Notes: generated by a model not told the origin, from the letters alone. A stretch of DNA of 64,000 nucleotides from Candidatus Levybacteria bacterium RIFCSPLOWO2_01_FULL_38_21 (GCA_001782475.1 MFOT01000024.1:42578-106577), one strand, 5' to 3'; shown: positions 17,444 to 49,350, counted from the stretch's first letter. Translations and numbers: made by a program.

Positions 17444-18379
17444 CTATCCGATTTTAAATTCAATCACGTCTCCGTCTTTTACTATATAATCCCTTCCTTC
17501 AAGCCTTATTTTCCCTTCCTCTTTTGCATTTTTCCACCCGCCAACAGATAATAAATCCCCAACTAAAATTACTTCTGCTTTAATAAAGTGTTTGGCAAAA
17601 TCTGTGTGGACTAAATTCGCCGCATCGATAATGTTTGCGCCGTTTTTAATTGGCCATGCTTGAGTCTGTTTCCCGCCAACAATCGTAAAGAAAGTTATTA
17701 AATTTAATAATTTGTAAGATTCTACAATAACTTGATCTAATCCTGAACTTGCTTGCCCTGAGTTTGTCGAATGGGCCGAAGGATCAACACCTAGCTCCCT
17801 AAGATAGCCCTCCTGTTCTGATTCTGAAAGATCTGAAAGTTCTGCTTCTAGTTTTGCGCAGATTTTAATGAATGAAAACGGAAGGCTGAAATCCTGCCTG
17901 CCGGCAGGCATGGCTTTTTTTAAATCTTTTTCGGAAACATTTAATACATAAATCGTTGGCTTTTTTATGCTTGCTAATTCAAGTTCTTGATTAACAGTTT
18001 CAACATCGATTATTGGGTCAATTTTCTGATAAGGATGCAAAACACTCGGGTTTTCAAAGACCCTTACAATATGTAAAATCGCATCTGCTTCTCTTATATG
18101 AGCTAAGAACTGATTTCCTAAACCTTCGCCGGCATGCGCCCCTTTGATCAGACCTGCTATATCTATAAATTTTATTGAAGCAGGTACTTTTTTATTAATA
18201 TTTGCGACTGCGGCAATTTTATCAAGTCTTTCGTCAGGCACCTCAACTACACCCACATTTGGTTCAATTGTCGTATACGGATATTCACCAACTTGTGCGA
18301 TCTGTCTTTTTAAAAGCGCATTAAAAAGTGTGGACTTCCCACTATTTGGCAGGCCAACGATCCCGATTGATAAGGACAT
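17444..18379 (-). CDS. ychF: ribosome-binding ATPase YchF (Obg-like)
   Basis: GIVGLPNSGKSTLFNAL ... YPYTTIEPNVGVV ... FIDIAGLIKGAHAGEGLGNQFLAHIREADAILHIVR; TGS-like C-terminus. Confidence 0.85.
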   Translation of the reverse strand: MSLSIGIVGLPNSGKSTLFNALLKRQIAQVGEYPYTTIEPNVGVVEVPDERLDKIAAVANINKKVPASIKFIDIAGLIKGAHAGEGLGNQFLAHIREADAILHIVRVFENPSVLHPYQKIDPIIDVETVNQELELASIKKPTIYVLNVSEKDLKKAMPAGRQDFSLPFSFIKICAKLEAELSDLSESEQEGYLRELGVDPSAHSTNSGQASSGLDQVIVESYKLLNLITFFTIVGGKQTQAWPIKNGANIIDAANLVHTDFAKHFIKAEVILVGDLLSVGGWKNAKEEGKIRLEGRDYIVKDGDVIEFKIG

Positions 18380-18462
18380 AAGAGGATTATATCCTAATGG
18401 AGGTCAAGATTCGAGCTCTCTACTTTATAACCGACCTATAAGTTGAAAAAAGGCTTTTGTTA

Positions 18463-18954
18463 CTAGGCTGCTTGAGTTAGTACAAATTTACCTCGCTTTG
18501 CATAGCCTTCGAGACGGTTATATTCTTTGTTTTCTGCGTCAGTCAGAACTGATTCAATTTTTTTTCTGCCCAGCAATCTGTATCTTTCTGCTGATGCTTG
18601 TGGATCAATTAATTCTTTAGCTTCTGCTTCGATAAGAGCTTTGTATGCTGCATCTTTTGCCTCTAATTGTTTCTCTGACAAATTTGCTTCGAACAATCCA
18701 AAACTCGCCATCTGATTCAGGTTTTCGCGCTCCCTTCTTTCTTCCTCGCTTAAAACACCGTCAAGCTGTTTTTGCCCCAATTCCCTAAATCTTGCCGCAA
18801 GTCCTGAGTATTTTTCTCCCAAAGGTAAGCTCTCTGGCGTAACAGCCACTCCTGACGGCGGACTAAACTCCGCTTGGGTGGTAACGGGTTCCGTGCTGTC
18901 CAACGTTCCTCGTTGTTGGGGCTCAACTGCCTCTGGTGTTCCATTATCCTGCAT
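18463..18954 (-). CDS. hypothetical protein
   Basis: 163-aa acidic/charged ORF, no motif. Confidence 0.3.
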   Translation of the reverse strand: MQDNGTPEAVEPQQRGTLDSTEPVTTQAEFSPPSGVAVTPESLPLGEKYSGLAARFRELGQKQLDGVLSEEERRERENLNQMASFGLFEANLSEKQLEAKDAAYKALIEAEAKELIDPQASAERYRLLGRKKIESVLTDAENKEYNRLEGYAKRGKFVLTQAA

Positions 18955-19064
18955 TACTTATACCTCCTTAAGAATATCTATATATTATTAATAACAGTTA
19001 TCTATAGCATCGTCAAGTCTACAGTCCCGACTGACAAGTTGATATTGAAAATTATAGCAGATTT

Positions 19065-19093
19065 CAAATGATTGTTGACAAAAGCTACGATAA
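19065..19093 (+). promoter_or_regulatory. strong sigma-70-like promoter (TTGACA, 17 nt, TACAAT)
   Basis: gTTGACAaaagctacgataattctTACAATcaag. Confidence 0.5.
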
Positions 19094-19157
19094 TTCTTAC
19101 AATCAAGTCAAGTTAATATCTTTTATCAATTGAGTTAAATTGCTGACCGCAAACGGA

Positions 19158-19192
19158 GGCAATCCCAGTTCAAACGGGGTTGCCTTTTTTTT
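19158..19192 (+). terminator. intrinsic terminator/attenuator hairpin in the 5' leader of the ugd-like gene
   Basis: ggcaatccc-agttcaaac-ggggttgcc forms a 9-bp stem followed by TTTTTTTT. It lies about 60 nt downstream of the promoter and 14 nt upstream of the ATG at 19206. Confidence 0.5.
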
Positions 19193-19205
19193 GCAGGCTT
19201 TATCG

Positions 19206-20456
19206 ATGAATTACAAAAAGATTTTATCTGAAAAAATTAAAACAAGAAAAGCTGTTGTTGGCATTATTGGAATTGGGTACGTCGGTGGAGCACTTGCTCA
19301 AGGAGCTGCTACTGCAGGATTTCGGGTTTTTGGATTCACCAGAAGTACGACCCGCGCTAATCATGTTAACAAACAAAAAATCCATAATTATACCGCTACT
19401 ACCGACATTACTCTACTCTCAAAATGCAGTATCATTTGTATCTGTGTTCCTACTCCGATACACGAGAACAAGTCACCCGATCTTGAACCTCTTCAGGACG
19501 CGCTTTCGAAGACAGCCGAATATTTAAAACCCGGATCACTTGTTATTATCGAGAGCACCGTAGCACCCGGTACCACCCGAAATATTGCTCTTCCAATGCT
19601 TCAGACGTCAGGGTTAAAAAAAGAAGAAGAAGAGTTTTTTCTATCTTTTTCTCCTGAGCGAGTCGATCCGGGAAATAAAAAATATACTATATGTAATACT
19701 CCAAAAGTAGTAGCCGGTTTAAGCAACACATCCAGTGATCTTGCCTGTAAGTTTTTTCAGAGTTTTGTTGAAAAGGTAGTCCCCGTTTCCTCTATTGAGG
19801 CAGCCGAAATGTCCAAGATTCTTGAGAATACGTTCCGACTTGTCAATATAAGCTTTATTAATGAACTTGTTCCATACGCAAAAAGTCTGGGTGTTGATAT
19901 ACATGAAGTGATAAATGTGGCAGCCACAAAACCATATGGATTTCTGCCGCATTATCCCGGTCCTGGGGTTGGCGGACACTGTATCCCAGTTGATCCATAT
20001 TACCTGCTTTCGGATGCGCGAAAACGGGGAATCTCACTTACCATAGTTGAAGACGCAGGTAGAGTGAATGAAGAACAACCAAAAAAAGTAGTCACCAAAG
20101 CTCTTGAGATTTTGAAAAAAACAAACGGACACAAGGCAACTTACAAGGTTTTGCTTCTCGGGCTTACATATAAAAAAGACATCGGCGATCAACGCGAATC
20201 AGCATCGCTTAAAATTTGGAAACTCTTGGAAGAAAAGAATGTCAATGTTTCTTACCACGACCCATATGTACCTTCATGGAACGACCACGTATCTGTGGAG
20301 CTGACCGATAAAACGCTTTCTGAAAATGACGTTATTATTATCACGACAGACCATGAGAATATCGACTATGCAAAACTTACCTCGCATCAAAAGCCTATCC
20401 TTGATACACGTAATGTACTGCGCAAAAACGGTTTTCCGTTTGTGTATGGAATATGA
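19206..20456 (+). CDS. nucleotide-sugar dehydrogenase (UDP-glucose / UDP-ManNAc dehydrogenase family)
   Basis: VVGIIGIGYVGGALA Rossmann motif; GPGVGGHCIPVDPYYL holds the catalytic Cys. The ORF-track start at 19140 lies inside the leader; 19206 is the more likely start. Confidence 0.75.
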   Translation: MNYKKILSEKIKTRKAVVGIIGIGYVGGALAQGAATAGFRVFGFTRSTTRANHVNKQKIHNYTATTDITLLSKCSIICICVPTPIHENKSPDLEPLQDALSKTAEYLKPGSLVIIESTVAPGTTRNIALPMLQTSGLKKEEEEFFLSFSPERVDPGNKKYTICNTPKVVAGLSNTSSDLACKFFQSFVEKVVPVSSIEAAEMSKILENTFRLVNISFINELVPYAKSLGVDIHEVINVAATKPYGFLPHYPGPGVGGHCIPVDPYYLLSDARKRGISLTIVEDAGRVNEEQPKKVVTKALEILKKTNGHKATYKVLLLGLTYKKDIGDQRESASLKIWKLLEEKNVNVSYHDPYVPSWNDHVSVELTDKTLSENDVIIITTDHENIDYAKLTSHQKPILDTRNVLRKNGFPFVYGI

Positions 20457-21394
20457 AACATGTTTTAGTAACAGGCGGCGCGGGTTTTATAGGCGCAAGT
20501 TTAGTTCGAAAGCTTCTTGAAAATGGCGATAAGGTTGTAGTAATTGATAATCTAATTACTTCAAACGGGGAAAGTATTAAACCGCTACTTAAAAATCCCA
20601 ATTTCAAATTTATCAAACGCGACATAATAAAACCTTTGCCTTCATCAATCATCAATCATCAATCATCAATTGGGCATATCTTCCATCTTGCCTGTCCGAC
20701 CGGCGTTCCGAATCTCACAAAACTTGCCAGAGAAATGCTACTTACCTCCGCGATCGGAACAATGAATGTTTTAGAACTTGCCAGAAAACACAAGGCAAAG
20801 TTTATATTCACAAGTTCTTCTGAAGTTTATGGTGATCCCAAAGTTTTTCCGCAGAACGAAAACTATACAGGCAATGTCAGCTCTGTAGGTATTAGAAGTC
20901 CATATGAAGAAGGAAAAAGATTTGCCGAAAGTCTGATTATGACTTACGTTCGAAAATATAATTTGGATGCAAGAATTGTCCGGGTGTTTAATACCTACGG
21001 ACCCCTGATGTCTATTAACGATACGCGCGTTATTCCAAAATTCTTAAAACAAATTAGTAAAAACCAGCCTCTGACAGTTCAAGGAGATGGCAGGCAAACA
21101 AGAACATTTTGTTACGTTGACGATCTAATAAAAGGTTTAGTTCTTCTTATGGACAAGGGGGGGGAGGGCGAAGTTTATAATCTCGGGAGTAACAAAGAAA
21201 TAAGTATAAATACCCTGGCTGGGCTCATGATAAAAATTACAAAATCTAAAAGTAAAACAATAAATATTAGTCGTCCGTCTCATGACCACAACCGCCGTCT
21301 CCCCGACCTGAGAAAAGCAAACAAACTTAATTGGTACACTAAGGTAGGCCTTGATGAAGGTTTAGAAAGGACCGTACGATGGTTTGGGTTTTAG
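20453..21394 (+). CDS. NAD-dependent epimerase/dehydratase (UDP-glucuronate decarboxylase/UXS-like)
   Basis: VLVTGGAGFIGASLVRKL ... PYEEGKRFAE (YxxxK). Contains an in-frame heptanucleotide tandem repeat encoding SSIINHQSSIG. Confidence 0.65.
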   Translation: MKHVLVTGGAGFIGASLVRKLLENGDKVVVIDNLITSNGESIKPLLKNPNFKFIKRDIIKPLPSSIINHQSSIGHIFHLACPTGVPNLTKLAREMLLTSAIGTMNVLELARKHKAKFIFTSSSEVYGDPKVFPQNENYTGNVSSVGIRSPYEEGKRFAESLIMTYVRKYNLDARIVRVFNTYGPLMSINDTRVIPKFLKQISKNQPLTVQGDGRQTRTFCYVDDLIKGLVLLMDKGGEGEVYNLGSNKEISINTLAGLMIKITKSKSKTINISRPSHDHNRRLPDLRKANKLNWYTKVGLDEGLERTVRWFGF

Positions 21395-22602
21395 CGTTCC
21401 TTACGCTTGCAGGATATAATTTTTCTTTTTGGCTAATTGTAGGAATAGCTAGATTTTTGTTCGAGAGAATCCCGCATTCTGATAAAAGAAAGAGGGGTCG
21501 GCCGTCAAAACCAATTTTGCCAAAAGACGTTGCGGCAGTCATTCCCGCGCATAATGAACAACGAACGATCGCAAAAGCAATAAGATCTCTTAGGAAGATT
21601 TTACCTGTGGGAAATATTTATGTTGCTAGCGACTACTCAACCGATAAGACGGTTAAAATTGCCAGATCTTTTAAAGTCAAGGTTTTAGACATTAGACCAA
21701 ACAGAGGAAAAGCAAGAGCATTGGTTTACATAATGAAACGCTATCATCTATTAAGCCGCTTCAAAGCAATAATTATTCACGACGCGGACGTTGAGGTTAG
21801 TAAAGATTATTTGAAAAATGCATTGCCATTTTTAAAAGACCAAAACGTAGCGGCGGTAGCAACTCACGGAGTAACAAGACTTAAGAACTACAAAGTGCTT
21901 GAGAGATTTTATATTACTTATAGGTTGAGACTTTGGAGAATTCTACAATACGGAATGCGTTTTGGTCAGACATGGAAATACACCAATGTAACTTATATCA
22001 TCCCCGGCAGTTTATCTCTCTATAGAACGAGGGTTCTTAAGAAACTTAAAATTGATGCACCTGATCTTATTATTGAAGATTTTAATATGACTTTTGAGGT
22101 GCGCAGAAAAAAACTTGGAATAATTGCCTATAATCCATCAATTTTTGGAGTTCATCAGGACCCTTACACATTTAGAGATTATACTAAACAATTAAGACGC
22201 TGGAATTTAGGTTTTTGGCAGACAGTTAAGAAAAACGGCATTTGGCCAAGTCTTTTCTGGCTTTCTATGGGGTCTTTTCTCATAGAACTTCTTCTTTATA
22301 CGTTTTTCATATTGTCCGTGCCAATTTTAATATTTATTTTCATTCTTCATTCCTTCAATCCGATAAGCATTCCCCTTGTATCATCTTACTTAACATTCCT
22401 TGATCTTCTCATTGGACTATTCCTTATGGATTATGTCCTTACTATAATTGCAGCGGCTGCGGAGAGAAAACCTGAAATGCTTATTTATGGTCTTGGCTTT
22501 TTCTTTCTTCGCTATGTTGATGCTATCATCTATACATATACTCTGCCTTTGGCATTTCTGGTTAAATCGAAGGGCACGTGGAGCAGTCCGGAGAGAAAGT
22601 AA
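21379..22602 (+). CDS. processive family-2 glycosyltransferase (NodC/HasA/PgaC/CesA-like, QxxRW)
   Basis: D, DAD, IEDFNMT (ED) and QLRRW motifs; one N-terminal and about four C-terminal TM helices. Confidence 0.7.
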   Translation: MVWVLAFLTLAGYNFSFWLIVGIARFLFERIPHSDKRKRGRPSKPILPKDVAAVIPAHNEQRTIAKAIRSLRKILPVGNIYVASDYSTDKTVKIARSFKVKVLDIRPNRGKARALVYIMKRYHLLSRFKAIIIHDADVEVSKDYLKNALPFLKDQNVAAVATHGVTRLKNYKVLERFYITYRLRLWRILQYGMRFGQTWKYTNVTYIIPGSLSLYRTRVLKKLKIDAPDLIIEDFNMTFEVRRKKLGIIAYNPSIFGVHQDPYTFRDYTKQLRRWNLGFWQTVKKNGIWPSLFWLSMGSFLIELLLYTFFILSVPILIFIFILHSFNPISIPLVSSYLTFLDLLIGLFLMDYVLTIIAAAAERKPEMLIYGLGFFFLRYVDAIIYTYTLPLAFLVKSKGTWSSPERK

Positions 22603-23667: not shown

Positions 23668-23671
23668 AAAA

Positions 23672-25015: not shown

Positions 25016-25023
25016 AATTAAAA

Positions 25024-29365: not shown

Positions 29366-29866
29366 TTATTTAATAACTGTCCCTGTTAATGTAAAAGTTA
29401 ATTTTGAATTTCTGCTATCATTTGTTTCTATTAGAACAAATCTGTTGATTGGTCCAATTCCCTGCACTCCGTGAAAAGCCGGGTCAAAAATAGCAGTAAG
29501 CTTTGCTTTGTCTCCTGCAGGCACTTCCCCCACCCACGAAGAAATGCTATCCATGCCAAAGTCCGGACTATCCTCTTCGGCAATTGTTACGCGTGCCTTT
29601 GTGCAATGACATGATGTTTTTACATTAAAAACCTTAAGCACCCCGCTTCCTGCGTTTTTGATAGTAAAAGTTTTTGTTACATTTCCGCCGTTTATTGGTA
29701 CGTTGCCCAAGTCAAAGCTTGTTGGTTCTAAGGTATATGCTTTGGCGTCTTTTGAGGCACCTGCTTTCGGCGTATTATTTGTTGTTGAGCCTAGAACGAA
29801 TACACCGCCAAAAATAATAATAACCGTTATAACAATCACTAAGATGATCAACTTTTTTTCATTCAT
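29366..29866 (-). CDS. DUF1573-like membrane-anchored protein (CxC motif)
   Basis: N-terminal TM helix; KTFTIKNAGSGVLKVFNVKTSCHCTKARV resembles the DUF1573 beta-sandwich with a conserved SCgCT. Confidence 0.4.
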   Translation of the reverse strand: MNEKKLIILVIVITVIIIFGGVFVLGSTTNNTPKAGASKDAKAYTLEPTSFDLGNVPINGGNVTKTFTIKNAGSGVLKVFNVKTSCHCTKARVTIAEEDSPDFGMDSISSWVGEVPAGDKAKLTAIFDPAFHGVQGIGPINRFVLIETNDSRNSKLTFTLTGTVIK

Positions 29867-30144
29867 ACACTTTTCCCATTATTTCTAAAGATTCGCATAA
29901 TCTCTTCTACCGATTGCTTGGTCTTTCCGCTTTTTATAAAATCGACAATACATCTTTTTAGGTGGTTTTGCAAAAGAAGATAGTCAACTTCTCTAAGTGC
30001 ACTTTGGACTGCCCGGGATTGGTTGATGATATCGATGCAGTATTGATCTTCCTTGATCATTTTTGTGACTTTCTCAAGATGCCCTCTTGTTATCTTTAAG
30101 CGATGGAGAATTCGTTCTTCTATATTTCTTGGTCTATATGCCAT
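29863..30144 (-). CDS. CsoR/RcnR/FrmR-family metal-sensing transcriptional repressor
   Basis: ILHRLKITRGHLEKVTKMIKEDQYCIDIINQSRAVQSALREVDYLLLQNHLKRC carries the C-H-C metal-ligand pattern; the start is probably the MAYRPRN Met. Confidence 0.65.
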   Translation of the reverse strand: MAYRPRNIEERILHRLKITRGHLEKVTKMIKEDQYCIDIINQSRAVQSALREVDYLLLQNHLKRCIVDFIKSGKTKQSVEEIMRIFRNNGKSV

Positions 30145-30226
30145 ACCTGTGCTGAGTATACCGAAGTATATCCCCCTCCTGGGGATATTATCACAAAAAT
30201 AAAAATACATTGCAAGTAGGAAAAGG

Positions 30227-31558
30227 CTATGTGGGCTGATTGCCGTTGTCACGCTTGTTTCTCCTAATTGCAAGCTCTTGTGCGCCAGTGGTTCTTATTG
30301 CTTTTGGATCTTCATCAAAATATGGACGGAGTTTTTCGGCTCGGGTGGGATCGCGGAGTTTTCCTAAGGCTTGTGCTTCAATTTGACGAATTCTTTCTCG
30401 AACTACATTAAACTCCCGACCAATCTCTTCCAGAGTTCTCCCTCTGCCATCCTCAAGGCCATAACGCAATATAAGAACTTTTTGCTCTTTCGGTGGTAGG
30501 GTTGCTAACGTTTCCATTAATGCTTTTTTACGTTCTGCCTCAAAGCTTTCTTCGTGAACGTCTGGTCCTCTATCTGGTATAAATTCGCCAAACTCGTCTA
30601 CTCCTTCGCCTACTGGTTCATTAAGTGAGACAATTTGTTGTGCTTTAATGGCAGCCAGAAGTACTGCCCCGCCTGCATCAAGCTCATCAGCCATGTCTTC
30701 AAGGCTTGGCTCGTAACCGAGCTCTTGAGCAAGCTGAGCTTTTACCTCCTTATACCGACGGAGCTTCTCTTTGGCGTGGGCAGGTATACGAATTGCTGAT
30801 CCATAATTAGCAATTCCCCTGATAATCGCTTGGCGAATCCACCAGACAGCATAAGTTGAAAATCTATACCTTGGTCGATTATCGTATTTTGCCGCAGCAA
30901 TCATAAGACCAATGTTACCGAAACTAATTAACTCGGGGAGCGATAAGCCCAGTCCTTGATATTTCTTAGCCCAAGAAACAGAAAGTCGCAAATTAGTATT
31001 AACCAAATCATTGTATGATTCAAGACCTTTGTACAGACGGTTAGTCTGCCGATCGATAAATTCCTGGAGAGTCCGTTCTCTTAGCTGGGTAGTCTCAATT
31101 TGCTCAATAGTCTCAAGCCTCTCTCTTACCTGGTCAACGTAACTTTCCGCAATTTTCACTAACTTGTTGTTAAAGTGGTCGAGAAGAAATCGGGCTTGTC
31201 GTGCTTGTAGTGATTGTTTATCTTCAAATAGGAAACTGATCTTTTCTTTCTGGGGTGGTGTTAGCAAGCTCGACTGGACTGTTTCCCTAAGAGCCAGAAG
31301 GGCCAGTTGACCAGCAAAAATTCGGCGAGCGCACCGCCATTGTTCCTCAGTTTCAAGTATCTTGAATTGACCAATCTCTTCTAGATAAAGACTGACCGGA
31401 TTGATATCTTCCCCATCATCCTCCGCATCTGGATGGTAATCAATCGCTCCAACTGCTTCTCCGAGTCGTCCAATTAGTGATTTTGGGCCGCTTAAAGTCT
31501 CGGGGACAATGTCCTTTGTAGGCAAAATATTTCCTCGCTCAACCCCAGCGCTCATCAT
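30227..31558 (-). CDS. rpoD: RNA polymerase sigma-70 factor
   Basis: Region 2 (YAVWWIRQAIIRGI) and region 4 (TLEEIGREFNVVRERIRQIEAQALGKLR). Confidence 0.85.
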   Translation of the reverse strand: MMSAGVERGNILPTKDIVPETLSGPKSLIGRLGEAVGAIDYHPDAEDDGEDINPVSLYLEEIGQFKILETEEQWRCARRIFAGQLALLALRETVQSSLLTPPQKEKISFLFEDKQSLQARQARFLLDHFNNKLVKIAESYVDQVRERLETIEQIETTQLRERTLQEFIDRQTNRLYKGLESYNDLVNTNLRLSVSWAKKYQGLGLSLPELISFGNIGLMIAAAKYDNRPRYRFSTYAVWWIRQAIIRGIANYGSAIRIPAHAKEKLRRYKEVKAQLAQELGYEPSLEDMADELDAGGAVLLAAIKAQQIVSLNEPVGEGVDEFGEFIPDRGPDVHEESFEAERKKALMETLATLPPKEQKVLILRYGLEDGRGRTLEEIGREFNVVRERIRQIEAQALGKLRDPTRAEKLRPYFDEDPKAIRTTGAQELAIRRNKRDNGNQPT

Positions 31559-32880: not shown

Positions 32881-34308
32881 CTACTTAATTCTTTCTACGC
32901 TCGTTGTTCCGTCTTCATTGTCCTGAATCTCATACCCTAATTTTTTAATCTTGTGCCTTACTTGATCTGCGAGATGATATCTTTTTTTCTTTCGCAATTC
33001 ATTTCTCTCCTCAACTAATTTTTGAATATTTTCCGGAATTTTTTCTTCCTCTTTTTTTATGTAATTTTTTGCATTTTCCAAATCAAGTCCCAAAACTTTA
33101 TCAAATTTAAAAAGGCTTTCTGCCTTAGCCCTCATTGGATAGTCTGATTTAACAAGGTCCCAAACTATGCTTAATGCCTGCGGGATATTTAAATCATCGT
33201 TAATCGCATTAAGAAATTTTTCTTCATATTCTGCGCATCCGATTTTTGGTGTGTCATAAGTTGAAACAATTTCTCTTAAATGATTTAAAGCAGTTTGAGC
33301 TCCCTTAAGTGCTTTAAATGTAAAATTCATTTTAGAACGATAGTGAATTGTTAGTGTGAGGTAGCGAAAGGAGAGGGGGTCGAATCCTTTTTTTTCAAGA
33401 TCAGAAATTGTGTAGATATTTCTCTTGGAACGAGACATTTTCTCTTCATTCACCAATAAATGCCCAGCGTGAACCCAGTAGTTTACAAATTTACTGCCGG
33501 TTGCAGCCTCGCTTTGTGCAATTTCATCCTCATGATGAGGAAAAATTAAATCCTCTCCGCCTGTATGGATATCGAAAGTATCACCTAGGTATTTGATGCT
33601 CATCGCAGAGCACTCAATATGCCAACCCGGAAAGCCAAGCCCCCAAGGGCTGTCCCATTTCATGAGCCTCTCTTTTTCTGCTTTTTTCCAGAGCGCAAAA
33701 TCAGCACTGTCTTTTTTATCAGTCTCAAGCGATACTCTAACTGCCTTTAAAAGATTGTCCATCTTCGAAAGAGTATTTCCCGAAAGCTTTCCATAGTTTT
33801 TAAACTTTTTAACATCAAAATAGACTGTTCCGTCAACCTCATATGCGAAGCCTTTTTTAAGAAGGACTTTGATAATTTCGATCATCTCCTTAATATTTTC
33901 GCTGGCCTTAGGATAGACAGTTGCAGGCAGAATATTTAATTTCTTTTCGTCCTCAAGATAAATTTTTGTAAAATGATCAGCAATCTCTTCGGGTGTTTTT
34001 TCCATCTTTATTGCTTCCTCTATTATCGGATCTATCTGTTCGACTTGTGGTGAGCCTGTCGAACCATGATGTCCTGTACCGATATTCCGCATATGTCCTA
34101 CATCGGTTATGTTCTTGATATATAAAACTCTATAACCGTTGTACATTAAAACCCGCCGCAAAAGATCCGAAGTGATATATGTTCTAAAGTTTCCTATATG
34201 AACTTCTCTATAAACCGTAGGTCCGCAGGTGTAAATACTAACCTTATCTTTATCAATTGGCTTAAACTCTTCAATTTTCCGGGAAAGTGTGTTATAAATT
34301 CTTAACAT
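32881..34308 (-). CDS. cysS: cysteine--tRNA ligase
   Basis: [17 protein letters not shown] (HIGH) and KMSRSKRN (KMSKS). Confidence 0.9.
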
Positions 34309-39717: not shown

Positions 39718-39779
39718 AAAAACACCCCCTTTTACCCGCCAAAGCCTTGGCGAAGGCGGGCTTACATTCTTTACCTATT

Positions 39780-40141: not shown

Positions 40142-41089
40142 TTAAATCTTTTCCAATACTTTAATTATTTCTGTCAAAGATAGCTTCGTTGGCTTCATTT
40201 TTGGATTTTTGACAGAGCCGTTTAAAAGCATTTTCCGACCGATATGAAGAAACCAAGTTGCTTGAGGGTCCATTTTTTTTAATCTTTCATAAACTAACGT
40301 CAAATCTATATTCTTGTTGATTGTTGATTGTTGATTGTTGATTGTTGATAAAGGCTTTGCCTTTATCCTAACATACCCTTTTCGCGGGTCTTTGCGAACA
40401 ACAATTACATATCCCATTTTTTGAGACAATTTTATAACGGTGTCATTAATCGTTTCAAAACCTATTCCACGGCCGTACCGCGTTTTAAATTTTTTTCCTT
40501 TTTCTTTAATCTCCCGCTCTGCCCAAATTCTGTTTTCAAATTCGTGCAAAACCGCATCAAGGCATTGCATTACGAAACCTACATAATATTCATCCTGATC
40601 GGGCCTTTGAACCTTAAGTCCATCTAAAATGCCTACTAGAGAAAATTCATGGTAATCCGCCGTTGGGTCTTTCCAAAAAACTTCTTTAAAATGATCAACA
40701 TCCACAACTACCTTAACCATTCTTCCTACAGCTTCCATCCGGTCTTTTACTCCTTCTGAACTCTGAATTCTGAACTCTGAATTCTGAACTCGTTTGACGA
40801 AGTCAAACGTAAGGCTTGCCGCACACACATTTGTATCGGCTACTTGATGATGATCCAAAGGACCAAGGCCCGTATCTACATGAATAACCTCATCATCTCC
40901 TATTTTCTCTATCGCATTGCGCGGGGAGCCCCGCCCGGGCGGGGCGACCTCAGCGCTTTTTCCAATTCGTTCTCCGGCTGGAACGAATCGGACGACCGCA
41001 TCTTCCCATCCCGGTAAAAATCTTTTTATAAGCCAAACAGAAGTTATCGCATCCAAATCCGGCGAACTATGCCCAATTATAATTTTCAT
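40142..41089 (-). CDS. DHH-family phosphoesterase (NrnA-like)
   Basis: MKIIIGHSSPDLDAITS and HVDTGLGPLDHH motifs; contains three in-frame repeat insertions (heptad STINNQQSTINK, ctgaact repeats, GC-rich palindrome). Confidence 0.65.
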   Translation of the reverse strand: MKIIIGHSSPDLDAITSVWLIKRFLPGWEDAVVRFVPAGERIGKSAEVAPPGRGSPRNAIEKIGDDEVIHVDTGLGPLDHHQVADTNVCAASLTFDFVKRVQNSEFRIQSSEGVKDRMEAVGRMVKVVVDVDHFKEVFWKDPTADYHEFSLVGILDGLKVQRPDQDEYYVGFVMQCLDAVLHEFENRIWAEREIKEKGKKFKTRYGRGIGFETINDTVIKLSQKMGYVIVVRKDPRKGYVRIKAKPLSTINNQQSTINKNIDLTLVYERLKKMDPQATWFLHIGRKMLLNGSVKNPKMKPTKLSLTEIIKVLEKI

Positions 41090-41194
41090 AAATTAAACTC
41101 AATAGTAAATGGTCGATTGTAAATTGTCAATTGTTAATTGTCGATGGCGGGGTTGACAAAAATAAAAAAATGAACCAATATATAATTACAGAGT

Positions 41195-41452: not shown

Positions 41453-42742
41453 TCGTTTAATCGCTTGATCCACAGAAATAATCTCTGTCTTATCTTCATC
41501 TCTTTTTTTCCATTCCACTTGTCCTCCAGAGACTTTATCTGAGATTACAAGCCGAACGGGAATTCCGATTAAATCCGCATCCGCAAATTTCTCTCCAGCA
41601 CTCACATCTTCTCTATCATCATAAAGAACCTCAACTCCTGTTTTCACAAGCTTATCGTACACCTCGGAGGTGGCCGACTCGCCCGGCGAAGCCTTGGCGA
41701 AGCGAGGATGGACTCCTCCGAGGTGGATTAAATGGACCTGATAGGGCGCAACAGATTTTGGCCAAACAATCCCTTTTTTATCGTTGTGAACTTCAGCAAT
41801 TGCTCCCATTGTTCTTGATATTCCTATCCCATAACAACCCATAACAACATATTTTTCTTTTCCGCTTTTATCTTTAAAAGTAAGTCCGAATGCTTTGGAA
41901 AATTTGTCTTTAAGAGGAAAAATATTTCCTACCTCGATTGTCTTTACTTTTTTCAAAGGTCCATGGCCAAGATCACATTCCTTGCCTTCCTTAACTTTGG
42001 TGATTTCTGAATTTTGCGAAAAATCTCCGCTGGGACAATAAATAATCTCATCTTCTCCGTTCCCACAGATAACCTGAAACTCATGGGAAAATTTGGAAAA
42101 TGTCCCGCCTGAAGCAAGTGTTTCTATAGCATTAAGCCCCAATCTTGAAAAAGTTTTTTTATAGACCTTTTTCATCAGCTCATAATAATCCACTAGATCT
42201 TTTTCGCTTTGGTGGAATGAATAAAGATCTTTCATAAGAAATTCTCTTCCTCTTAAAAGTCCTGCCTTCGATCTTGCCTCATCCCGAAATTTATTCTGAA
42301 TTTGATAAAGTTTTAACGGAAGATCTCTGTATGAATTCGCAAAGTTTTTTACCAGAGGCACTAAGACCTCTTCATGAGTAGGACCTAAGGCATACTCAAA
42401 ATCATATCTGCTTTTAACTTTAAAAAGCGCGTCAAAAGAATCCCACCTTCCGGTTTTTTCCCAATTTGCTTTATTTTGAAAGGAAACTAATAGAAGTTCC
42501 TGCGCTCCTGTATTATCCATCTCATCCCGTATAATATTTGAGATTTTATTTAATACCCTAAGTCCTAAAGGCAGAAAATTATAAACTCCGGCAACTTCTT
42601 TTCTTATAAATCCTGCCTGAATTAACAATCGTGCATTTACCGAAGATTCATCTTTGGGGGATTCTTTTATTGTTTTACCAAAAAGCTTTGAATATAGCAT
42701 AGAATATCCTGAGTTTACCGAAGGATAAAACGAGTATAGCAT
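41444..42742 (-). CDS. proS: proline--tRNA ligase
   Basis: Class II aaRS motifs (GPTHEEVLVPL..., FRDE, GCYGIGISR); contains an in-frame GC-rich repeat insertion (GGVHPRFAKASPGESATSEV). Confidence 0.85.
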   Translation of the reverse strand: MLYSFYPSVNSGYSMLYSKLFGKTIKESPKDESSVNARLLIQAGFIRKEVAGVYNFLPLGLRVLNKISNIIRDEMDNTGAQELLLVSFQNKANWEKTGRWDSFDALFKVKSRYDFEYALGPTHEEVLVPLVKNFANSYRDLPLKLYQIQNKFRDEARSKAGLLRGREFLMKDLYSFHQSEKDLVDYYELMKKVYKKTFSRLGLNAIETLASGGTFSKFSHEFQVICGNGEDEIIYCPSGDFSQNSEITKVKEGKECDLGHGPLKKVKTIEVGNIFPLKDKFSKAFGLTFKDKSGKEKYVVMGCYGIGISRTMGAIAEVHNDKKGIVWPKSVAPYQVHLIHLGGVHPRFAKASPGESATSEVYDKLVKTGVEVLYDDREDVSAGEKFADADLIGIPVRLVISDKVSGGQVEWKKRDEDKTEIISVDQAIKRLG

Positions 42743-42743
42743 A

Positions 42744-43724
42744 TTATTTCTTCTTAACTTCCCTGCCCTGAGCTTTTATCCTGAGCGGAGTCGAAGGATG
42801 CCGAATGGGGTGGCCGCCGAAAGCGTTTCGAAGAGCAGAAATCATTTTTGCGGTAAAGGAATTTTGAATTTTTGGATTCTCTTGAGATCTTTTTCTAAAA
42901 TCAAGCGATCTTTCAATAATCTCAACCGGGACGTTTTCTTCTTTCGCCTGATCAATCGTCCAATCTGCTTCTCCCGAGCTTTCGATAAAACCTGAAGATT
43001 TTGATAAATTCGGATCTTTTTTTAAAACATCGACTACCCTATCAAGCATAAAGCCTGAAACCAGTGTCCCTTTTTGCCAAAGCTTTGCAACTTTAAGAAG
43101 ATCAAATTCGTACGGAGCTTTTTCTAAAACCTCAAACCCTTCCGAAAGACTTTGCATAATTCCATATTCTATTCCGTTATGAACCATTTTTATAAAGTGT
43201 CCTGCTCCTCCCTCTCCAAAATATTCATATCCTCCATTGGGTTTTGAGAGAGTATCCAAAATTGTAGTGATGTATTGATACGCTGAGACATCGCCGCCGA
43301 CCATTAGAGGGTATCCAGTTTTTTCGGCAATAATTCCCCCCGAAACTCCAATTCCCAAAAATCTTATCCCTTTTATCTTTAACTGCCTATATCTTCTTGC
43401 AGTATCTTTAAAATAAGAATTTCCTCCATCTATAATAATATCTTCTGTTTCTATAAATTTGACAACTTCATTTAAAGTACTCTCTGTTACGGAACCTGCC
43501 GGAAGCATTAACCAAATAACTCTTGGTTTTTCAAGACTTTTAACCATCCACTCTATAGTTTTAAATAGTCTGTATTTTGCGCCTTTAAAAGAAGCCAGTT
43601 TCGCTTCTAATTTTTTAAAAGGCTCCTCTGATCTATTCCATATTGAAACTTCGTGTCCGTCCAAGATAAGTTTTGCCACTATCCGACTTCCCATTTTTCC
43701 AAGTCCAATAAACCCGACTTTCAT
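42744..43724 (-). CDS. gnd: 6-phosphogluconate dehydrogenase, decarboxylating (short YqeC/GntZ-like form)
   Basis: MKVGFIGLGKMGSRIV NAD-binding N-terminus; 6PGDH C-domain; adjacent to zwf and pgl. Confidence 0.7.
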   Translation of the reverse strand: MKVGFIGLGKMGSRIVAKLILDGHEVSIWNRSEEPFKKLEAKLASFKGAKYRLFKTIEWMVKSLEKPRVIWLMLPAGSVTESTLNEVVKFIETEDIIIDGGNSYFKDTARRYRQLKIKGIRFLGIGVSGGIIAEKTGYPLMVGGDVSAYQYITTILDTLSKPNGGYEYFGEGGAGHFIKMVHNGIEYGIMQSLSEGFEVLEKAPYEFDLLKVAKLWQKGTLVSGFMLDRVVDVLKKDPNLSKSSGFIESSGEADWTIDQAKEENVPVEIIERSLDFRKRSQENPKIQNSFTAKMISALRNAFGGHPIRHPSTPLRIKAQGREVKKK

Positions 43725-43804
43725 AATTTCTAATTACTCCAATTCCTAATCAAATCTCAAATTTTATCAGTATTTATTCACTATTCTTAAATCTCAAATC
43801 TTAT

Positions 43805-45232: not shown

Positions 45233-45304
45233 ATTTATAATTTACTATTGACTATATACCATTTTAAATCATAAATGGTCAATGATAAATGGTCAATTAT
45301 ATTT

Positions 45305-46135
45305 CTATAACTTTTGATCTGTAATTAAAAGAGTTTTTTTGGAAACTTGGGGAGTTTTTAGAAATCTAGCCGGAATTTCTTCTATTGGTCCTTTCGAAAA
45401 CAAAAGCTCTAAGGCCTTCTTCTTTTCCTTTCCAAAAACAAGAAGAATTAAAAGATCCATTTTTGAAAGGGCATGAATTGTCAAAGTGATTCTTTCCCCA
45501 AAGCCAAAAGGCGGAGCCGGAGAACCTTCTTTTGACATTGACTTAGGATCTCTAAATTCCGAAACAAATAAATTTTTTCTTTCTCTTTTGAAAAGTGGAT
45601 TTTTAAAGTCAGGCCGATTTGGAGCGATACTTGCAGTATGACCATCGACTCCTAGGCCTAAAATCGAAATGCATTTTGGAAATTGTGTAAATAATTGACT
45701 CACAATGCTATTATATCTCTCCGCCACCTTCCTTCTTTTCCTCATATTTGTATCTCCACCCTTGGGGTGGAATCGTAGGTCTTGGTGAAGGATTGGGAAA
45801 AACGGAATGTGCTCAGATGCAAAATAACCAAGAAGTCCTGTTTTCTTAATTGATAGTTCATTGCTTATCCTATGAAGCGCTGGCCCAAATCGCTCATCTA
45901 CCATCGCAACTGTCCCGGGTTTTAAAATTTTCTCTTTTGCTAAGATTTGGTATAGAGGTTTTGGGGTGGACCCGCCTGACAAAAACAAAACAGTTCTTTC
46001 ATCAACAATTTTATATATCTCCCTTTTTGCAAGCTCAACCCCTGGGGTTGAGCCGTAAACTTTAAGTATTGAAATCCCATCTTTATTGTTGACCCCGATT
46101 GAATCGAGGTTGACTTTTGAACTTAAATTTTTCAC
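45305..46135 (-). CDS. pgl: 6-phosphogluconolactonase
   Basis: VLFLSGGSTPKPLY motif; GlcN6P-isomerase/6PGL fold. Confidence 0.75.
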   Translation of the reverse strand: MKNLSSKVNLDSIGVNNKDGISILKVYGSTPGVELAKREIYKIVDERTVLFLSGGSTPKPLYQILAKEKILKPGTVAMVDERFGPALHRISNELSIKKTGLLGYFASEHIPFFPILHQDLRFHPKGGDTNMRKRRKVAERYNSIVSQLFTQFPKCISILGLGVDGHTASIAPNRPDFKNPLFKRERKNLFVSEFRDPKSMSKEGSPAPPFGFGERITLTIHALSKMDLLILLVFGKEKKKALELLFSKGPIEEIPARFLKTPQVSKKTLLITDQKL

Positions 46136-46161
46136 TTTTAATTTTTAATTTTTAATTTATT

Positions 46162-47298
46162 TTATGGTTTTGGAAGAATTGGCTGGCCAGAGATAAAACG
46201 AATAATATCGCTTAGGGTAATAGCTGCGATTAAGGCAAGAAGAATTGCCATTCCAATTGCGTGCGCATAACTTTCAAATTTTGTAGAAACTTTTCTGCCT
46301 GTTACGGCTTCTATTAGAATAAAAAAAAGTCTTCCCCCATCAAGCGCCGGAATCGGCAAGATATTCAAAATCGCAAGATTCAAAGACAGGAGCGATACAA
46401 AAGATAAAACCGCCAAAGGACCTATTGCTACAAACTGTCCGGTTAATTGAGCAATTCCAACAGGTCCTGCAACTCCTTTTGGCGCTTGTGCATGGACAAG
46501 TAACTGATAAACAATTCCTGCAAGACCCGACAAAATAAGCCAAGAGTATTTAAGAGCTTCTAAGAGCCCTACAAACGGTGCTTGATATAGTGAATATTTT
46601 TTAGTAATAACATTGGAAGTTATTCCTACTCCCATTGGTCCTTGATCGGATGGATAATTTTTTCGCGGAATTACCTCTACATTTCTTTCTTTTTTAGATT
46701 TGTCTAAAACTCTGAGAGCTAATTTCTGCCCTAAATGCTGTTTTGTGACTGATACTAATTGAGAAGGGCTTGTAATTTTTTCACTATTGATAGTAACAAT
46801 CTGATCTCCTGTTTTAAGTCCCGCTTTTTGAGCAGGAGAATCCTTTACTATCTCTGTTATAAAAACCTTATCGCCGGGAGTCTGGACGCCTGATATTCCA
46901 TAAAAATAAGTGAGTATAAAAACTGCTAAAAGAAAATTCATTACAACCCCAGCTATTACAACCAATGCTCTTTGCCAAACAGGTCTTGAGAAGAATGCTC
47001 TTTGAGCATCTTCAACTTTCAACTTTCCACTTTCAACTTTCAACTTTCCGCCGCCAGCGCTGTCTTCTCCGTAAAGTTTTACAAATCCTCCGATAGGCAA
47101 AAAGTTTATTGAATATATTGTTTCTCCTCTTTTTATTCCGAACGCTCGGGGCGGAAGACCAAATCCAAATTCCTCAACTCTTATCCCTAACTTTTTCGCC
47201 ACAAAAAAATGCCCCGCCTCATGTATTAGAACGAGAACCGTCAATATTATCAAAAAAACTAAAATTGTTATTAGCATAAAATTTAAGTCAAAAGGCAA
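46162..47298 (-). CDS. rseP: RIP metalloprotease RseP (site-2 protease, M50)
   Basis: LIHEAGHFFVAKK (HExxH), PDZ domain, LDGG motif; contains an in-frame caacttt heptad repeat encoding GGGKLKVESGKLKVED. Confidence 0.8.
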   Translation of the reverse strand: MPFDLNFMLITILVFLIILTVLVLIHEAGHFFVAKKLGIRVEEFGFGLPPRAFGIKRGETIYSINFLPIGGFVKLYGEDSAGGGKLKVESGKLKVEDAQRAFFSRPVWQRALVVIAGVVMNFLLAVFILTYFYGISGVQTPGDKVFITEIVKDSPAQKAGLKTGDQIVTINSEKITSPSQLVSVTKQHLGQKLALRVLDKSKKERNVEVIPRKNYPSDQGPMGVGITSNVITKKYSLYQAPFVGLLEALKYSWLILSGLAGIVYQLLVHAQAPKGVAGPVGIAQLTGQFVAIGPLAVLSFVSLLSLNLAILNILPIPALDGGRLFFILIEAVTGRKVSTKFESYAHAIGMAILLALIAAITLSDIIRFISGQPILPKP

Positions 47299-47409
47299 AA
47301 GTCAAAGGTCAAAAGTTAAAGTAAAAAGTTAAAAGTTTTTGAATTTTGAATTGCTCTTCGGTCTTGAGCTCAGGGTCGAAAGATAATTTTGAATTTTGCA
47401 TTTTGAATT

Positions 47410-47970
47410 TTAAATTTGGAGGAGTTCTTCTTCTTTTTTCTTCCCCATTCCCTCAATATCTTCCATGAGTTCATCTGTCAGTTTTTGAACTTCTTTTTCC
47501 ATTCTTCCCGCCTCATCTTCTGAGATTGACTTATTGTTTTGCTGTTTTTTAATATCGGCCATTGCCTCATGTCTTACTTGGCGAACCATAATCCTCCCGT
47601 TCTCAAGTTTTTGTTTCATTAAATGGATTAGCTCCTGACGCCTCTCCTCAGATAATCTTGGGATAGAAATTCTTATTATCTGTCCATCAATTACGGGATT
47701 TAAGCCAAGATTTGCTTCAAGAATTCCTTTTTGAATTTCTCCGATTATTGAATGGTCAAAAGGAGTAACAGCGAGGGTCTGCGGATCAGATGTTGTAATA
47801 GTTGTAAGCTCCATTACTTTAAGTCTTTGAGTTGCGCCATATGCATTTATAACTATATTTTCTACAAGAGAAGGGGCTGCCCGCCCGGTTCGAACTGTTG
47901 AAAGATCATTTCTTACAACCTCAAGTATCTTGTTCATTTTTGACCGGGCATCCGCAATTAGCTGATCCAT
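47410..47970 (-). CDS. frr: ribosome recycling factor
   Basis: VRTGRAAPSLVENIVINAYG... characteristic RRF sequence. Confidence 0.9.
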   Translation of the reverse strand: MDQLIADARSKMNKILEVVRNDLSTVRTGRAAPSLVENIVINAYGATQRLKVMELTTITTSDPQTLAVTPFDHSIIGEIQKGILEANLGLNPVIDGQIIRISIPRLSEERRQELIHLMKQKLENGRIMVRQVRHEAMADIKKQQNNKSISEDEAGRMEKEVQKLTDELMEDIEGMGKKKEEELLQI

Positions 47971-48009
47971 TTGAGAAAAAGTATACGACAGATCCTGTGA
48001 TTTAGCAAA

Positions 48010-48462
48010 TTAAATTTCGAATCTCTCAAACCTTTTGAGAACAATATTTTCCCCAAGCCTTGAGATTGCTTGTTTTATAAAATCTTGAATCGTTAAGGAT
48101 GGGTCTCTTATGTATTCTTGCTTAAGGAGTGAGTTAACATCCCTAGGTTTCATTGCGGCAATCTGCATTGCAATTTCGTGCGCTAAGTTTTTAAATTCAC
48201 TTGTTCTTGCAACAAAATCAGTCTCGCACAAAAGCTCAACTATTGCTCCAACTTTTCCGTTTTGATGGATGTAGCTTTCGATAATTCCCTGAGCAGTTTT
48301 TCTATCTCTTTTCTTCTCTGCCTTTTTAATACCATGTTTTTTAATCCACGCAAGAGCTTTTTTATAATCGTTATTCGTCTCTTCCAAAGCTTTTCTTAAA
48401 TCCACAATTGATACAGATGTTTCATTTCTTAACTGCTTTAATAACTTAATGTCTGTCTTCAT
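48010..48462 (-). CDS. tsf: elongation factor Ts (short form)
   Basis: LVKQLRNETSVSIVDLRKALEETNNDYKKALAWIKKHG UBA-like N-terminus; rpsB-tsf synteny. Confidence 0.8.
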   Translation of the reverse strand: MKTDIKLLKQLRNETSVSIVDLRKALEETNNDYKKALAWIKKHGIKKAEKKRDRKTAQGIIESYIHQNGKVGAIVELLCETDFVARTSEFKNLAHEIAMQIAAMKPRDVNSLLKQEYIRDPSLTIQDFIKQAISRLGENIVLKRFERFEI

Positions 48463-48465
48463 ATT

Positions 48466-49350
48466 TTACTTTTTACTTCTCGCCCTGAGCGAAGCCGAAG
48501 GGTTGACTTTTGTTTTTGGCCTTCGGTCTTTAACTTTTGACACCGCTGAACTTTTACTCTTTATCTCTTTCTTTTCTTCTTTATTTTTTAATTTCTCGCC
48601 CTGAGCTTGTCGAATGGGTTCTTTTTCATTTTTTATTTTATTCCGCCCCTCAATCCATGCATCTATTATATAACTTGTTATAAGTTTTATCGATCCTGTC
48701 GCATCATCGTTTGCCGGAATTGGATAATCAATAATTTCGGGGTTTGCGTTTGTATCAACGATTGCGACTGTTGTAACGCCCATTTTTCTTGCCTCATCAA
48801 TTACCAAGTCTTCAAGATGAGAGTCTATTACAAATACTGCATCCGGAATTTTTTTAAGATCTGCGATTCCTCCGTATAATAATGCGAGTTTTTGCCTTTC
48901 CTTTTCCCAGAGCCCTATCTCTTTCTTAGTATATTTTGATCTTTCTTCCTCACTTCTAAGTTTTTCGGCAAGATCTTTCAATTTTTTAAAGTTCTTTGCA
49001 ACCTCGGAAAAATTAGTAAGCGTTCCGCCTACCCATCTTTCTGTTACATAAAAAATTTGATTTTCTATTTTACCTGAAGATTGCTGTTTTGCCTTTTTAA
49101 CTTCTTCCTCCACAACCGACCGGGCTTGTCTTTTTGTTCCAACAACAATTAAGCTTCCGTTTTTTTGCGAAAGATTGAAAATAAATTTTCCAGCTTCTTC
49201 AAGACCTGCTTTGGTTTTGGTAAGATCAACTATATGAATATTATCGCGGGCTTCAAAGATGTAGTCTCGGGCTTTTGGATTTCCGCGCGTTACCTGATGT
49301 CCAAAATGGCATCCTGCCTCAAGAAGTTCTTCAAGCGTAATTTCCCTCAT
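48466..49350 (-). CDS. rpsB: 30S ribosomal protein S2
   Basis: MREITLEELLEAGCHFGHQVTRGNPKARDYIF. The ORF-track start at 49488 adds a 46-aa hydrophobic extension that is probably not translated. The C-terminal tail carries two GC-rich repeat insertions. Confidence 0.85.
   Translation of the reverse strand: MREITLEELLEAGCHFGHQVTRGNPKARDYIFEARDNIHIVDLTKTKAGLEEAGKFIFNLSQKNGSLIVVGTKRQARSVVEEEVKKAKQQSSGKIENQIFYVTERWVGGTLTNFSEVAKNFKKLKDLAEKLRSEEERSKYTKKEIGLWEKERQKLALLYGGIADLKKIPDAVFVIDSHLEDLVIDEARKMGVTTVAIVDTNANPEIIDYPIPANDDATGSIKLITSYIIDAWIEGRNKIKNEKEPIRQAQGEKLKNKEEKKEIKSKSSAVSKVKDRRPKTKVNPSASLRARSKK

Follow-up and report, generated by a model that had tools for sequence, protein, structure and literature searches.

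A dispersed 24-nucleotide hairpin repeat within genes of a Candidatus Levybacteria genome

Results

A hairpin repeat in the Levybacteria window

The window analyzed here is a 64-kb stretch of the genome of Candidatus Levybacteria bacterium RIFCSPLOWO2_01_FULL_38_21 (GCA_001782475.1 MFOT01000024.1:42578-106577), a Microgenomates member of the Candidate Phyla Radiation (CPR) from the Rifle aquifer metagenome. The window corresponds to scaffold_320 of a Rifle aquifer metagenome, and its CysRS shows 100% identity to the CysRS of this bacterium. It contains about 11 copies, roughly one per 6 kb, of a short hairpin repeat built on a TGAG/CGAA core, and most of them lie inside genes. Comparison with related genomes defines a 24-nt unit that is gained whole at new sites. 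The original prediction described a GC-rich hairpin repeat at five places (ychF, gnd, two in rpsB and the rseP-frr intergenic region), and the motif is present at all of them. The gene names assigned at that stage (YchF, 6PGDH-like protein, S2, ProRS, RseP, RRF and EF-Ts) are right, but the genome is not "very AT-rich": its GC content is about 38-40%, and the window ranges over 35-47% per 2-kb block, mostly 36-42%. Nearly all genes between 11 and 56 kb lie on the minus strand.

A regular expression for the literal pattern, CCTGAG-N3-7-CGAA[GT]GG, gave 3 matches in the window compared with 0 in 100 dinucleotide shuffles. The stems of the copies vary, and the element was therefore redefined by structure as at least 3 Watson-Crick base pairs, TGAG, N3-9, CGAA, an optional 1-nt bulge and the complementary arm, with no G-T pairs. 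The structural scan returned 9 matches in the window, all on the plus strand, compared with an average of 0.5 and at most 3 in 200 dinucleotide shuffles and 0 in each of five permuted-core controls. These controls exclude occurrence at chance frequency, the outcome that the original prediction had named as speaking against the repeat. A G.T-tolerant scan contributes one more copy (30148-30170). Two further matches, at 29783-29804 and 19793-19811, are probably chance. Nine of the 11 structural matches in the window are internal to an open reading frame (ORF) and antisense to the gene, and they occur as singletons or nested pairs. The folding strand, which carries TGAG, is the plus strand for all window copies; this is the C-rich strand and the template strand of the genes.

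Both rpsB copies lie in the C-terminal tail of ribosomal protein S2, whose Pfam domain stops at aa 281. The tail unit (48595-48618, plus strand, as are all copies described here) is the 24-nt sequence CTCG+CCC.TGAG.cttgt.CGAA.t.GGG and encodes EPIRQAQG (aa 290-297). The copy at the extreme C terminus (48482-48503; GCCC.TGAG.cgaagc.CGAA.GGGT) encodes NPSASLRA (ORF aa 329-336) and holds the GCGAAGC mini-hairpin sequence; this tail segment is missing from the other S2 orthologs listed. The ychF and gnd copies, each predicted as one, are real but consist of two nested copies. In ychF, a minus-strand gene, an inner 24-nt unit (17752-17775; CTTG+CCC.TGAG.tttgt.CGAA.t.GGG; aa ~202-209, AHSTNSGQ) sits within an outer, older copy (17740-17784; ATCC.TGAa.cttg[inner unit]c.CGAA.GGAT; aa 198-215, VDPS...SSGLD) whose core has decayed from TGAG to TGAA. 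In the gnd-like protein, whose 6PGD Pfam match stops at aa 283, the outer copy (42762-42810; CCTG+CCC.TGAG.cttt[inner]c.CGAA.t.GGG(G)) occupies the C-terminal tail (aa 305-320) and carries the inner copy (42777-42800; TATCC.TGAG.cggagt.CGAA.GGATG) in its loop.

Four copies were missing from the predicted list. The cysS copy (34045-34069; TTGTGG.TGAG.cctgt.CGAA.CCATGA) encodes HHGSTGSPQ (aa 80-88) and has a stretch of the class I catalytic domain on either side. The glyA copy (50968-50989; GTGG.TGAG.cttgc.CGAA.t.CCAT) encodes NGFGKLTT (aa 410-417) in the C-terminal extension of SHMT, where the Pfam match stops at aa 396 of 455. A copy assigned with moderate confidence (30148-30170; TGTGC.TGAG.tatac.CGAA.GTATA, with CCTG 5' of the stem) lies at aa 35-42 of a CsoR-like repressor ORF on the minus strand (29863-30273); the Pfam domain begins at aa 53, which places the copy in a 5' extension or the upstream region. 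The fourth copy (42705-42727; TATCC.TGAG.tttac.CGAA.GGATA) is non-coding, with the gnd stop codon (42744) on one side and the ATG that probably starts proS (42700) on the other. The related genome L334 has the orthologous proS-upstream copy (627-648) with a changed stem that is still paired, GTCC/GGAC. Reading of the sequence places AGGA, contributed by the 3' arm on the mRNA strand, 7 nt ahead of the ATG, and the copy may have acquired a role in translation initiation or in the control of this step.

The predicted intergenic copy between frr and rseP is also non-coding. Its register had been misplaced; the correct position is 47361-47384 (GTCT.TGAG.ctcagggt.CGAA.AGAT), on the plus strand like the others. 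The RNA fold of this copy is -11.6 kcal/mol (z -1.7) on the plus strand compared with -4.5 on the minus strand.

Encoded peptides

The ychF, cysS, gnd, rpsB and glyA reading frames stay open despite the inserts. All three reading frames are used and the encoded peptides are unrelated, which together with the two non-coding copies (42705 and 47361) bears out the claim that conservation is at the DNA level and not the protein level. The mRNA orientation found in the window reads without a stop codon in any of the three frames, whereas the opposite orientation has TGA in one. Copies in genes sit in tails or in one modeled loop of low predicted confidence. They lie beyond the last Pfam-matched residue in S2, 6PGDH and SHMT, between matched stretches in CysRS and between domains in YchF, where the AlphaFold model has a predicted local distance difference test (pLDDT) score <50 at residues 200-211. 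The inserted peptides are probably neutral passengers. In a compact CPR genome, insertions would persist mainly if their length is a multiple of three.

Filled and empty sites in close relatives

The cleanest filled/empty site is the rpsB tail. A relative with an S2 protein 91% identical (L335) lacks exactly the 24 nt of 48595-48618, and its empty site reads ...GAAAAAGAA|AATATAAAAAAT.... The window and a second relative (L336) have 24 extra bases, CCCATTCG(A/G)CAAGCTCAGGGC(G/A)AG on the sense strand. On the folding strand this unit is C(T/C)(T/C)G + CCC.TGAG.cttgY.CGAA.t.GGG, with CTTG as the tag in L336. The flanks are identical and no target-site duplication is present; this is the one site whose boundaries are unambiguous.

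The ychF gene of the window exceeds its 88%-identical ortholog (P0002/L205) by exactly 24 nt (17752-17775), inserted directly after the loop CTTG of the older copy. The L205 gene keeps that older copy intact at the same site (ATCC.TGAG.cttgc.CGAA.GGAT), and more distant YchF orthologs are insert-free there and read E-KSGLD. L205 also has another 24-nt unit near the C terminus that is not in the window or L208, and in L206 a further 24-nt unit is nested in this L205-type C-terminal unit, again just after the loop CCTG. Across 34 YchF orthologs, the element-derived peptides SSGQA, PSTSLRTN, HSTGSGQA and DPSTSSGLS occur at at least four different positions. The 7-8 aa CysRS segment (G)S(T/A)GSPQV is found in 11 of the 60 close orthologs listed and is absent from the other 49. 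Related Levybacteria have copies at other sites, in dnaX and at the cysS N terminus. The targets at primary sites are not a fixed tetranucleotide (ATT^, A(A/C)G^, TTG^ and CTG^). Close orthologs thus lack the segments as clean indels, the result sought from the proposed ortholog comparison, and whole units are gained at new sites.

Structure of the element

The architecture common to the copies is a 3-6 bp stem, TGAG, a 5-8 nt loop, CGAA, an optional 1-nt bulge and the complementary stem. The hairpin is ~20-24 nt, and the full unit of ~24 nt comprises a 4-nt tag, usually CYTG, and a 20-nt hairpin. In the conserved core, tandem G.A/A.G mismatches are flanked by a T-A and a G-C pair, with a Y-GA-R context on both strands. 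This context favors sheared tandem G.A pairs. The loop is usually C-Y-T-G-Y and less often of the G-N-A-G type, and a single bulged base follows CGAA on its 3' side in about one-third of the copies. The lower stems vary (GCCC/GGGY, (T)ATCC/GGAT(A), GTGG/CCAT, GTGC/GTAT, GTCT/AGAT and also CCC/GGG).

A free-stem scan, CYTGNNNTGAGCYTGYCGAA with the stem triplet left free and one genome per species, was used to assess pairing and returned at least 120 loci. In 83 of the 125 free-stem matches listed, the triplet that follows CGAA, directly or after a 1-nt bulge, is fully complementary where ~3% is expected by chance, and most of the remainder deviate by T.G wobble alone. There are 19 different kinds of stem triplet. 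The 372 free positions in the 124 distinct matches listed comprise 326 Watson-Crick pairs (88%), 31 G.T, 5 A.C and 10 other combinations. The large excess of G.T over A.C identifies the TGAG strand as the structurally constrained, folding strand. The TGAG strand is also predicted to be the more stable of the two strands, in 102 of 122 cases when RNA parameters are used and in 95 of 122 when DNA parameters are used. The predicted GC-rich hairpin is thus backed by stem covariation, but it is not a plain GC stem: the core is the tandem G.A motif TGAG/CGAA, and the stems are variable. Among YTGY-loop copies recovered by a query that did not impose the tag, CYTG is found directly 5' of the stem in 19 of 43 (~44%); the 5' flank varies in the others, and the 4-nt hairpin foot is mostly GCCC or GTCC.

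A MAFFT alignment for a covariance model was set aside because it misplaced the loop and bulge gaps; the aligned sequences had been preselected for pairing, so covariation counts on that alignment would be circular. Three known RNA motifs were dropped on inspection of the sequence: the hammerhead lacks its CUGA-N-GA core, the kink-turn its 3-nt bulge and the GNRA receptor the receptor sequence.

Distribution, nesting and strand preference

The free-stem matches reach >20 phyla, including Chloroflexota, Acidobacteriota, Planctomycetota, Bacteroidota, Pseudomonadota, Patescibacteria, Cyanobacteriota, Actinomycetota, Chlamydiota, Nitrospirota and Spirochaetota. There are hundreds of copies in other genomes, and in other low-GC genomes they are mostly intergenic. 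Viral contigs of 36-72% GC contribute at least 120 loci. Intergenic copies also occur on replicons of cultured strains in the plasmid collection, including Sphingobium (up to 15 places per replicon), Variovorax, Moraxella and Microbacterium. A background sample of 904 kb of unselected ychF loci, which come mostly from distant bacteria, has 12 matches and is at the level of the permuted controls. This background indicates a patchy family, as expected of mobile DNA. The closest ychF relatives among the metagenome matches listed (≤63% identity) have no copies.

Nesting is a recurrent arrangement. Nineteen of 420 copies lie inside the loop of another copy, a rate far above random insertion into a 5-nt target. 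Six of the nested copies have the same junction, TGAG-CYTG^[CYTG+hairpin]^CGAA, in five different lineages: the window, another CPR genome, Pseudomonadota, Kiritimatiellia and Lentisphaerae. Units therefore land repeatedly in the loop of an existing copy. Tandem arrays have a 24-nt period at locus L031 and periods of 23, 24 and ~46 nt elsewhere. Long-stem versions have the form CCGTTCGTGG.TGAG.cctgt.CGAA.CCATGAACGG. A Nitrospirales metagenome-assembled genome (MAG; L301, 829-1398) has seven long-stem copies with 10-11 bp stems, a conserved G.T wobble and ~46-nt spacing; this cluster adjoins an amine-oxidase gene and includes one "cattctgagcgaagcgaagaatc" copy. Inverted pairs are found at L168 and L213 only, and L098 has a partial duplication.

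The orientation relative to genes is mixed in other genomes, with 21 ORF copies antisense and 15 sense, and 17 intergenic copies opposite and 12 the same. A general rule of gene-sense orientation was rejected on these counts. TGAG is carried by the C-rich strand at 76 of 120 viral loci (p ~7e-4) and at 72 of 111 genome loci (p ~3e-4), and copies within one locus are mostly on the same strand.

Other palindromes and features of the window

A second, unrelated GC-rich insert of 21 nt is present in ychF at 17895-17915 (aa ~157-163). Its sense strand is GCCATGCCTGCCGGCAGGCAG, which includes the perfect palindrome GCCTGCCGGCAGGC and encodes AMPAGRQ. Three close ychF orthologs do not have this insert, and the YchF model has pLDDT <50 over it as well (156-162). 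The ssb linker contains the GC-rich palindrome CCCCGCCTTTGGCGGGG (15984-16013), which is kept in the L208 ssb. Further intragenic GC-rich palindromes are located at 40911-40959, 39742-39763 and 41656-41704 (in proS, aa RFAKASPGE); they comprise CCCCGCCCGGGCGGGG and GCCTTGGCGAAGGC-type sequences. YchF orthologs have related "FAKASEG"-type inserts. Several families of in-frame palindromes thus seem to coexist in this genome. Thymidylate synthase (53986-54954, 322 aa) matches its 266-position Pfam profile end to end and has ~45-55 extra residues, which may be further inserts.

In the rpsB ORF, the first 46 aa form a hydrophobic N-terminal extension (49351-49488; MFFLVVNICIILL...) that is probably not translated, and the S2 domain starts after the Met at 49350. 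A near-identical 23-nt sequence, CTGTCGCCTCAGGCGACCGTTCT, occurs twice (61547-61575 and 61903-61935) with the hairpin GTCGCC-TCA-GGCGAC, and one occurrence adjoins tRNA-Ile (61585-61657). An ORF for a LAGLIDADG endonuclease (63316-63831) overlaps an Rfam match to group II intron D1-D4 (63773-63851, 38 bits), possibly an intron at the window edge (63316-63851). The window also encodes a 1330-aa SdrD_B/CarboxypepD_reg surface protein (6912-10904), a 23S-rRNA-intervening-sequence protein (PF05635; 10960-11319) and a dockerin/cohesin gene pair that flanks a 636-aa ORF with no Pfam match (56894-60294).

Discussion

A probable mobile hairpin and rival explanations

The copies are very likely a mobile repeat that is conserved as a DNA hairpin. 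Assignment to one family of very small, non-autonomous mobile single-stranded DNA (ssDNA) hairpins, similar to repetitive extragenic palindromes (REP) and Rickettsia palindromic elements (RPE), is less secure but is the favored explanation and probably correct. The element would move as single-stranded DNA. A trans-acting, structure-specific enzyme would recognize the hairpin plus the 5' tetranucleotide, as occurs at IS200/IS605 ends and in REP-RAYT systems (HUH/Y1 "peel and paste"). By analogy with these systems, an HUH-type enzyme is a tentative candidate for the mobilizer.

Several observations weigh against this explanation. A search that covered the window and the surroundings of two dense clusters, L301 and L031, found no transposase, HUH/Y1 or other candidate mobilizer gene, and the enzyme step is purely inferred. 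The copies do not carry the canonical REP tag GT[AG]G. Not all gains are 24 nt: the differences are +9 nt for the outer ychF copy, +15 at the cysS N terminus, +21 for the cysS copy relative to L333 and +36 in ssb, and the junctions of the 15- and 21-nt cysS differences are ambiguous. At two of these non-24-nt sites, sequence similar to part of the element is present even when the site is empty (CCTGA and AGG), which would suit a homology- or template-switch-based process. All 120 free-stem matches listed from the genome collection (L212-L331) are MAGs. Scan order or the taxa concerned may account for this, and the copies on plasmids of cultured strains argue against an artifact. The preference for the C-rich strand is inseparable from gene orientation, and the effects of replication and transcription are confounded; the preference is also opposite to that of the IS608 top strand. 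Finally, the nearest-neighbor folding energies of individual window copies are no better than shuffles (z ~0). The RNA folding proposed in the original prediction thus gave no support at the level of single copies, and it is covariation and strand asymmetry, not single-copy thermodynamics, that mark the copies out.

A selected cis element useful to the host, either a regulatory or stabilizing RNA or DNA structure or a binding site for a host protein, with incidental mobility, is an unlikely explanation overall. In its favor, the proS-upstream copy keeps its position in the window and L334 with a changed yet paired stem, and its arm overlaps the likely Shine-Dalgarno AGGA. A conserved core and loop with variable stems across phyla is also what protein-recognized hairpins look like. 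Against it are a folding strand that is antisense to mRNA for every window copy, the mixed orientation to genes in other genomes, the gain and loss of copies between close relatives in unconstrained protein tails, and the lack of an Rfam match in the window and two dense loci.

Copying without an enzyme, through replication template switching or slippage at an unusually stable G.A mini-hairpin with CYTG microhomology, would yield quasi-palindromes and also has observations in its favor. CYTG is both the tag and part of the loop, nested units begin right after the loop CYTG, partial duplications (L098) and tandem arrays exist, and gains of 9, 15 or 21 nt are found where the sequence was already element-like. 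The rpsB insertion is instead a complete 24-nt unit between A/T-rich flanks with no homology to it, and in the six nested cases, which come from different phyla, both junctions are precisely the same. A core common to >20 phyla would in addition need a shared recognizer or horizontal spread. Template switching is given a low probability.

The original prediction also raised resemblance to a DNA-uptake sequence, and accumulation of such a recognition sequence (DNA uptake sequence/uptake signal sequence (DUS/USS)-like) by biased uptake and recombination in a lineage that relies on imported DNA is very improbable. The copies are over-represented, strand-biased and inside genes in several frames, and a dependence on DNA uptake is presumed for CPR bacteria. 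An uptake word would spread by substitution, but here whole 24-nt insertions are seen, the conserved feature is a structure with covarying stems instead of one fixed word, the density is ~1 per 6 kb, the core is shared by >20 unrelated phyla, and the closest ychF relatives among the metagenome matches listed have no copies. The weakest alternative, a selected linker peptide or a chance compositional pattern, draws on the small, polar, Gly/Ser/Gln-rich character of the peptides and is refuted by the use of three frames to encode unrelated sequences, the non-coding copies, and the shuffle and permuted-core controls.

The clean filled/empty pairs that define the 24-nt unit and its boundaries make the mobilization mechanism directly testable. 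One core in >20 phyla with covarying stems implies a conserved recognizer or wide horizontal spread, and the partner of the element could be a new ssDNA-processing enzyme family or a new use of a known one. The element explains recurrent short "low-complexity" peptides (RQAQG, SGQA, PSTSLR, GSPQV, FGKLR and others) that enlarge and diversify CPR proteins and disturb their alignment and annotation. The affected proteins include ribosomal protein S2, YchF, SHMT and the surroundings of two aminoacyl-tRNA synthetases. A more speculative view, considered possible but doubtful, is that the element represents an unnamed pan-bacterial class among the smallest mobile DNA: a single hairpin of 24 nt, built on a sheared tandem G.A core, that prefers its own loops, is moved by a widespread ssDNA-processing enzyme and is a steady source of new peptide segments in essential CPR proteins.

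Comparison with known repeats

The predicted REP-like resemblance fits. REP/REPIN elements are mobilized by RAYT (TnpA_REP, HUH-Y1) (PMC6006769 (Quentin 2018), PMC3733652 (Di Nocera 2013)), and REPs also occur inside genes, including synthetase genes (PMC3733652). The Levybacteria element shares with them short (20-40 nt) imperfect palindromes in many dispersed copies (about 11 in the window compared with 0.5 expected), a conserved tetranucleotide at the 5' foot of the hairpin, tolerance of G.T pairs, stem sub-families, the lack of terminal inverted repeats and occasional in-frame insertion in genes, including those for aminoacyl-tRNA synthetases. It differs in having the tag CYTG instead of GT[AG]G, a conserved tandem G.A core, units that are mostly single instead of inverted pairs, and window copies that are mostly intragenic, whereas REPs are mainly extragenic. 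REP families are lineage-specific, whereas one core is common to >20 phyla here, and no RAYT/TnpA_REP gene is present in the window or the two clustered loci searched. The motif strings are absent from the text and supplements of PMC6006769 and PMC3733652 except for one partial resemblance to a Pseudomonas REP. No Rfam family matches the copies in the window and the two dense loci at gathering or permissive E-value thresholds. The literature searched contains no description of the motif and no link between REP-like elements and the CPR, although a description outside that literature is possible.

The CGTC-tagged REP superfamily, as set out in PMC3733652, has a terminal CGTC/TGTC tag, an 8-9 bp stem that starts with A-T, a 4-5 nt loop and a CCA tail, and Rickettsia RPE-4/-6 are linked to CGTC repeats (PMC3733652). 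On these described features, only the ATTC...GAAT sub-family of the present element appears similar (for example L301 1225-1245, with TGTC 5'), and the window copies are not. The extraordinarily stable DNA mini-hairpins GCGNAGC/GCGAAGC, as described in PMC13037366, share the stability of sheared G.A pairs, and the exact GCGAAGC is found in the loop-GAAG sub-family (48482-48503, L301 and viral copies). These mini-hairpins are a structural motif and not a repeat family or mobile element, and most copies here have CYTGY loops.

IS200/IS605 ends and REP-RAYT combine a tetranucleotide and hairpin with strand asymmetry and have no duplication and no inverted ends (PMC6006769). Like the ends of IS608 and ISDra2, the Levybacteria element has a strand-specific hairpin with an adjacent tetranucleotide, no target-site duplication, no inverted terminal repeats and an orientation bias linked to replication or strand. 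Unlike these insertion sequences, it has no transposase gene, a single hairpin instead of two ends, no fixed target tetranucleotide and a C-rich preferred strand. Miniature inverted-repeat transposable elements (MITE) derived from DDE transposases differ from it in their terminal inverted repeats and target-site duplication; the element has a single hairpin and an rpsB site with unambiguous boundaries and no duplication. It is also unlike DUS/USS, in which one invariant word of 9-12 nt recurs densely and spreads by substitution inside a single lineage.

Insertion into essential genes has a counterpart in the RPE, which were reportedly described by Ogata et al. in 2000. RPEs are ~100-150 bp long and are not known outside Rickettsia. 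The two share palindromic repeats inserted in frame in essential genes of a reduced genome, where they add tolerated peptide segments; the present unit is 24 nt, is found in >20 phyla and encodes 7-8 aa peptides in tails or loops. The mobile GC clusters of yeast mitochondria are likewise short, GC-richer palindromes in a lower-GC genome that are sometimes in frame in genes; their sequence, host and proposed mechanism differ. In-frame palindromic repeats are thus already known from RPEs and REPs, and the present element works alike but is set apart from them by its tag, size, host range and arrangement.

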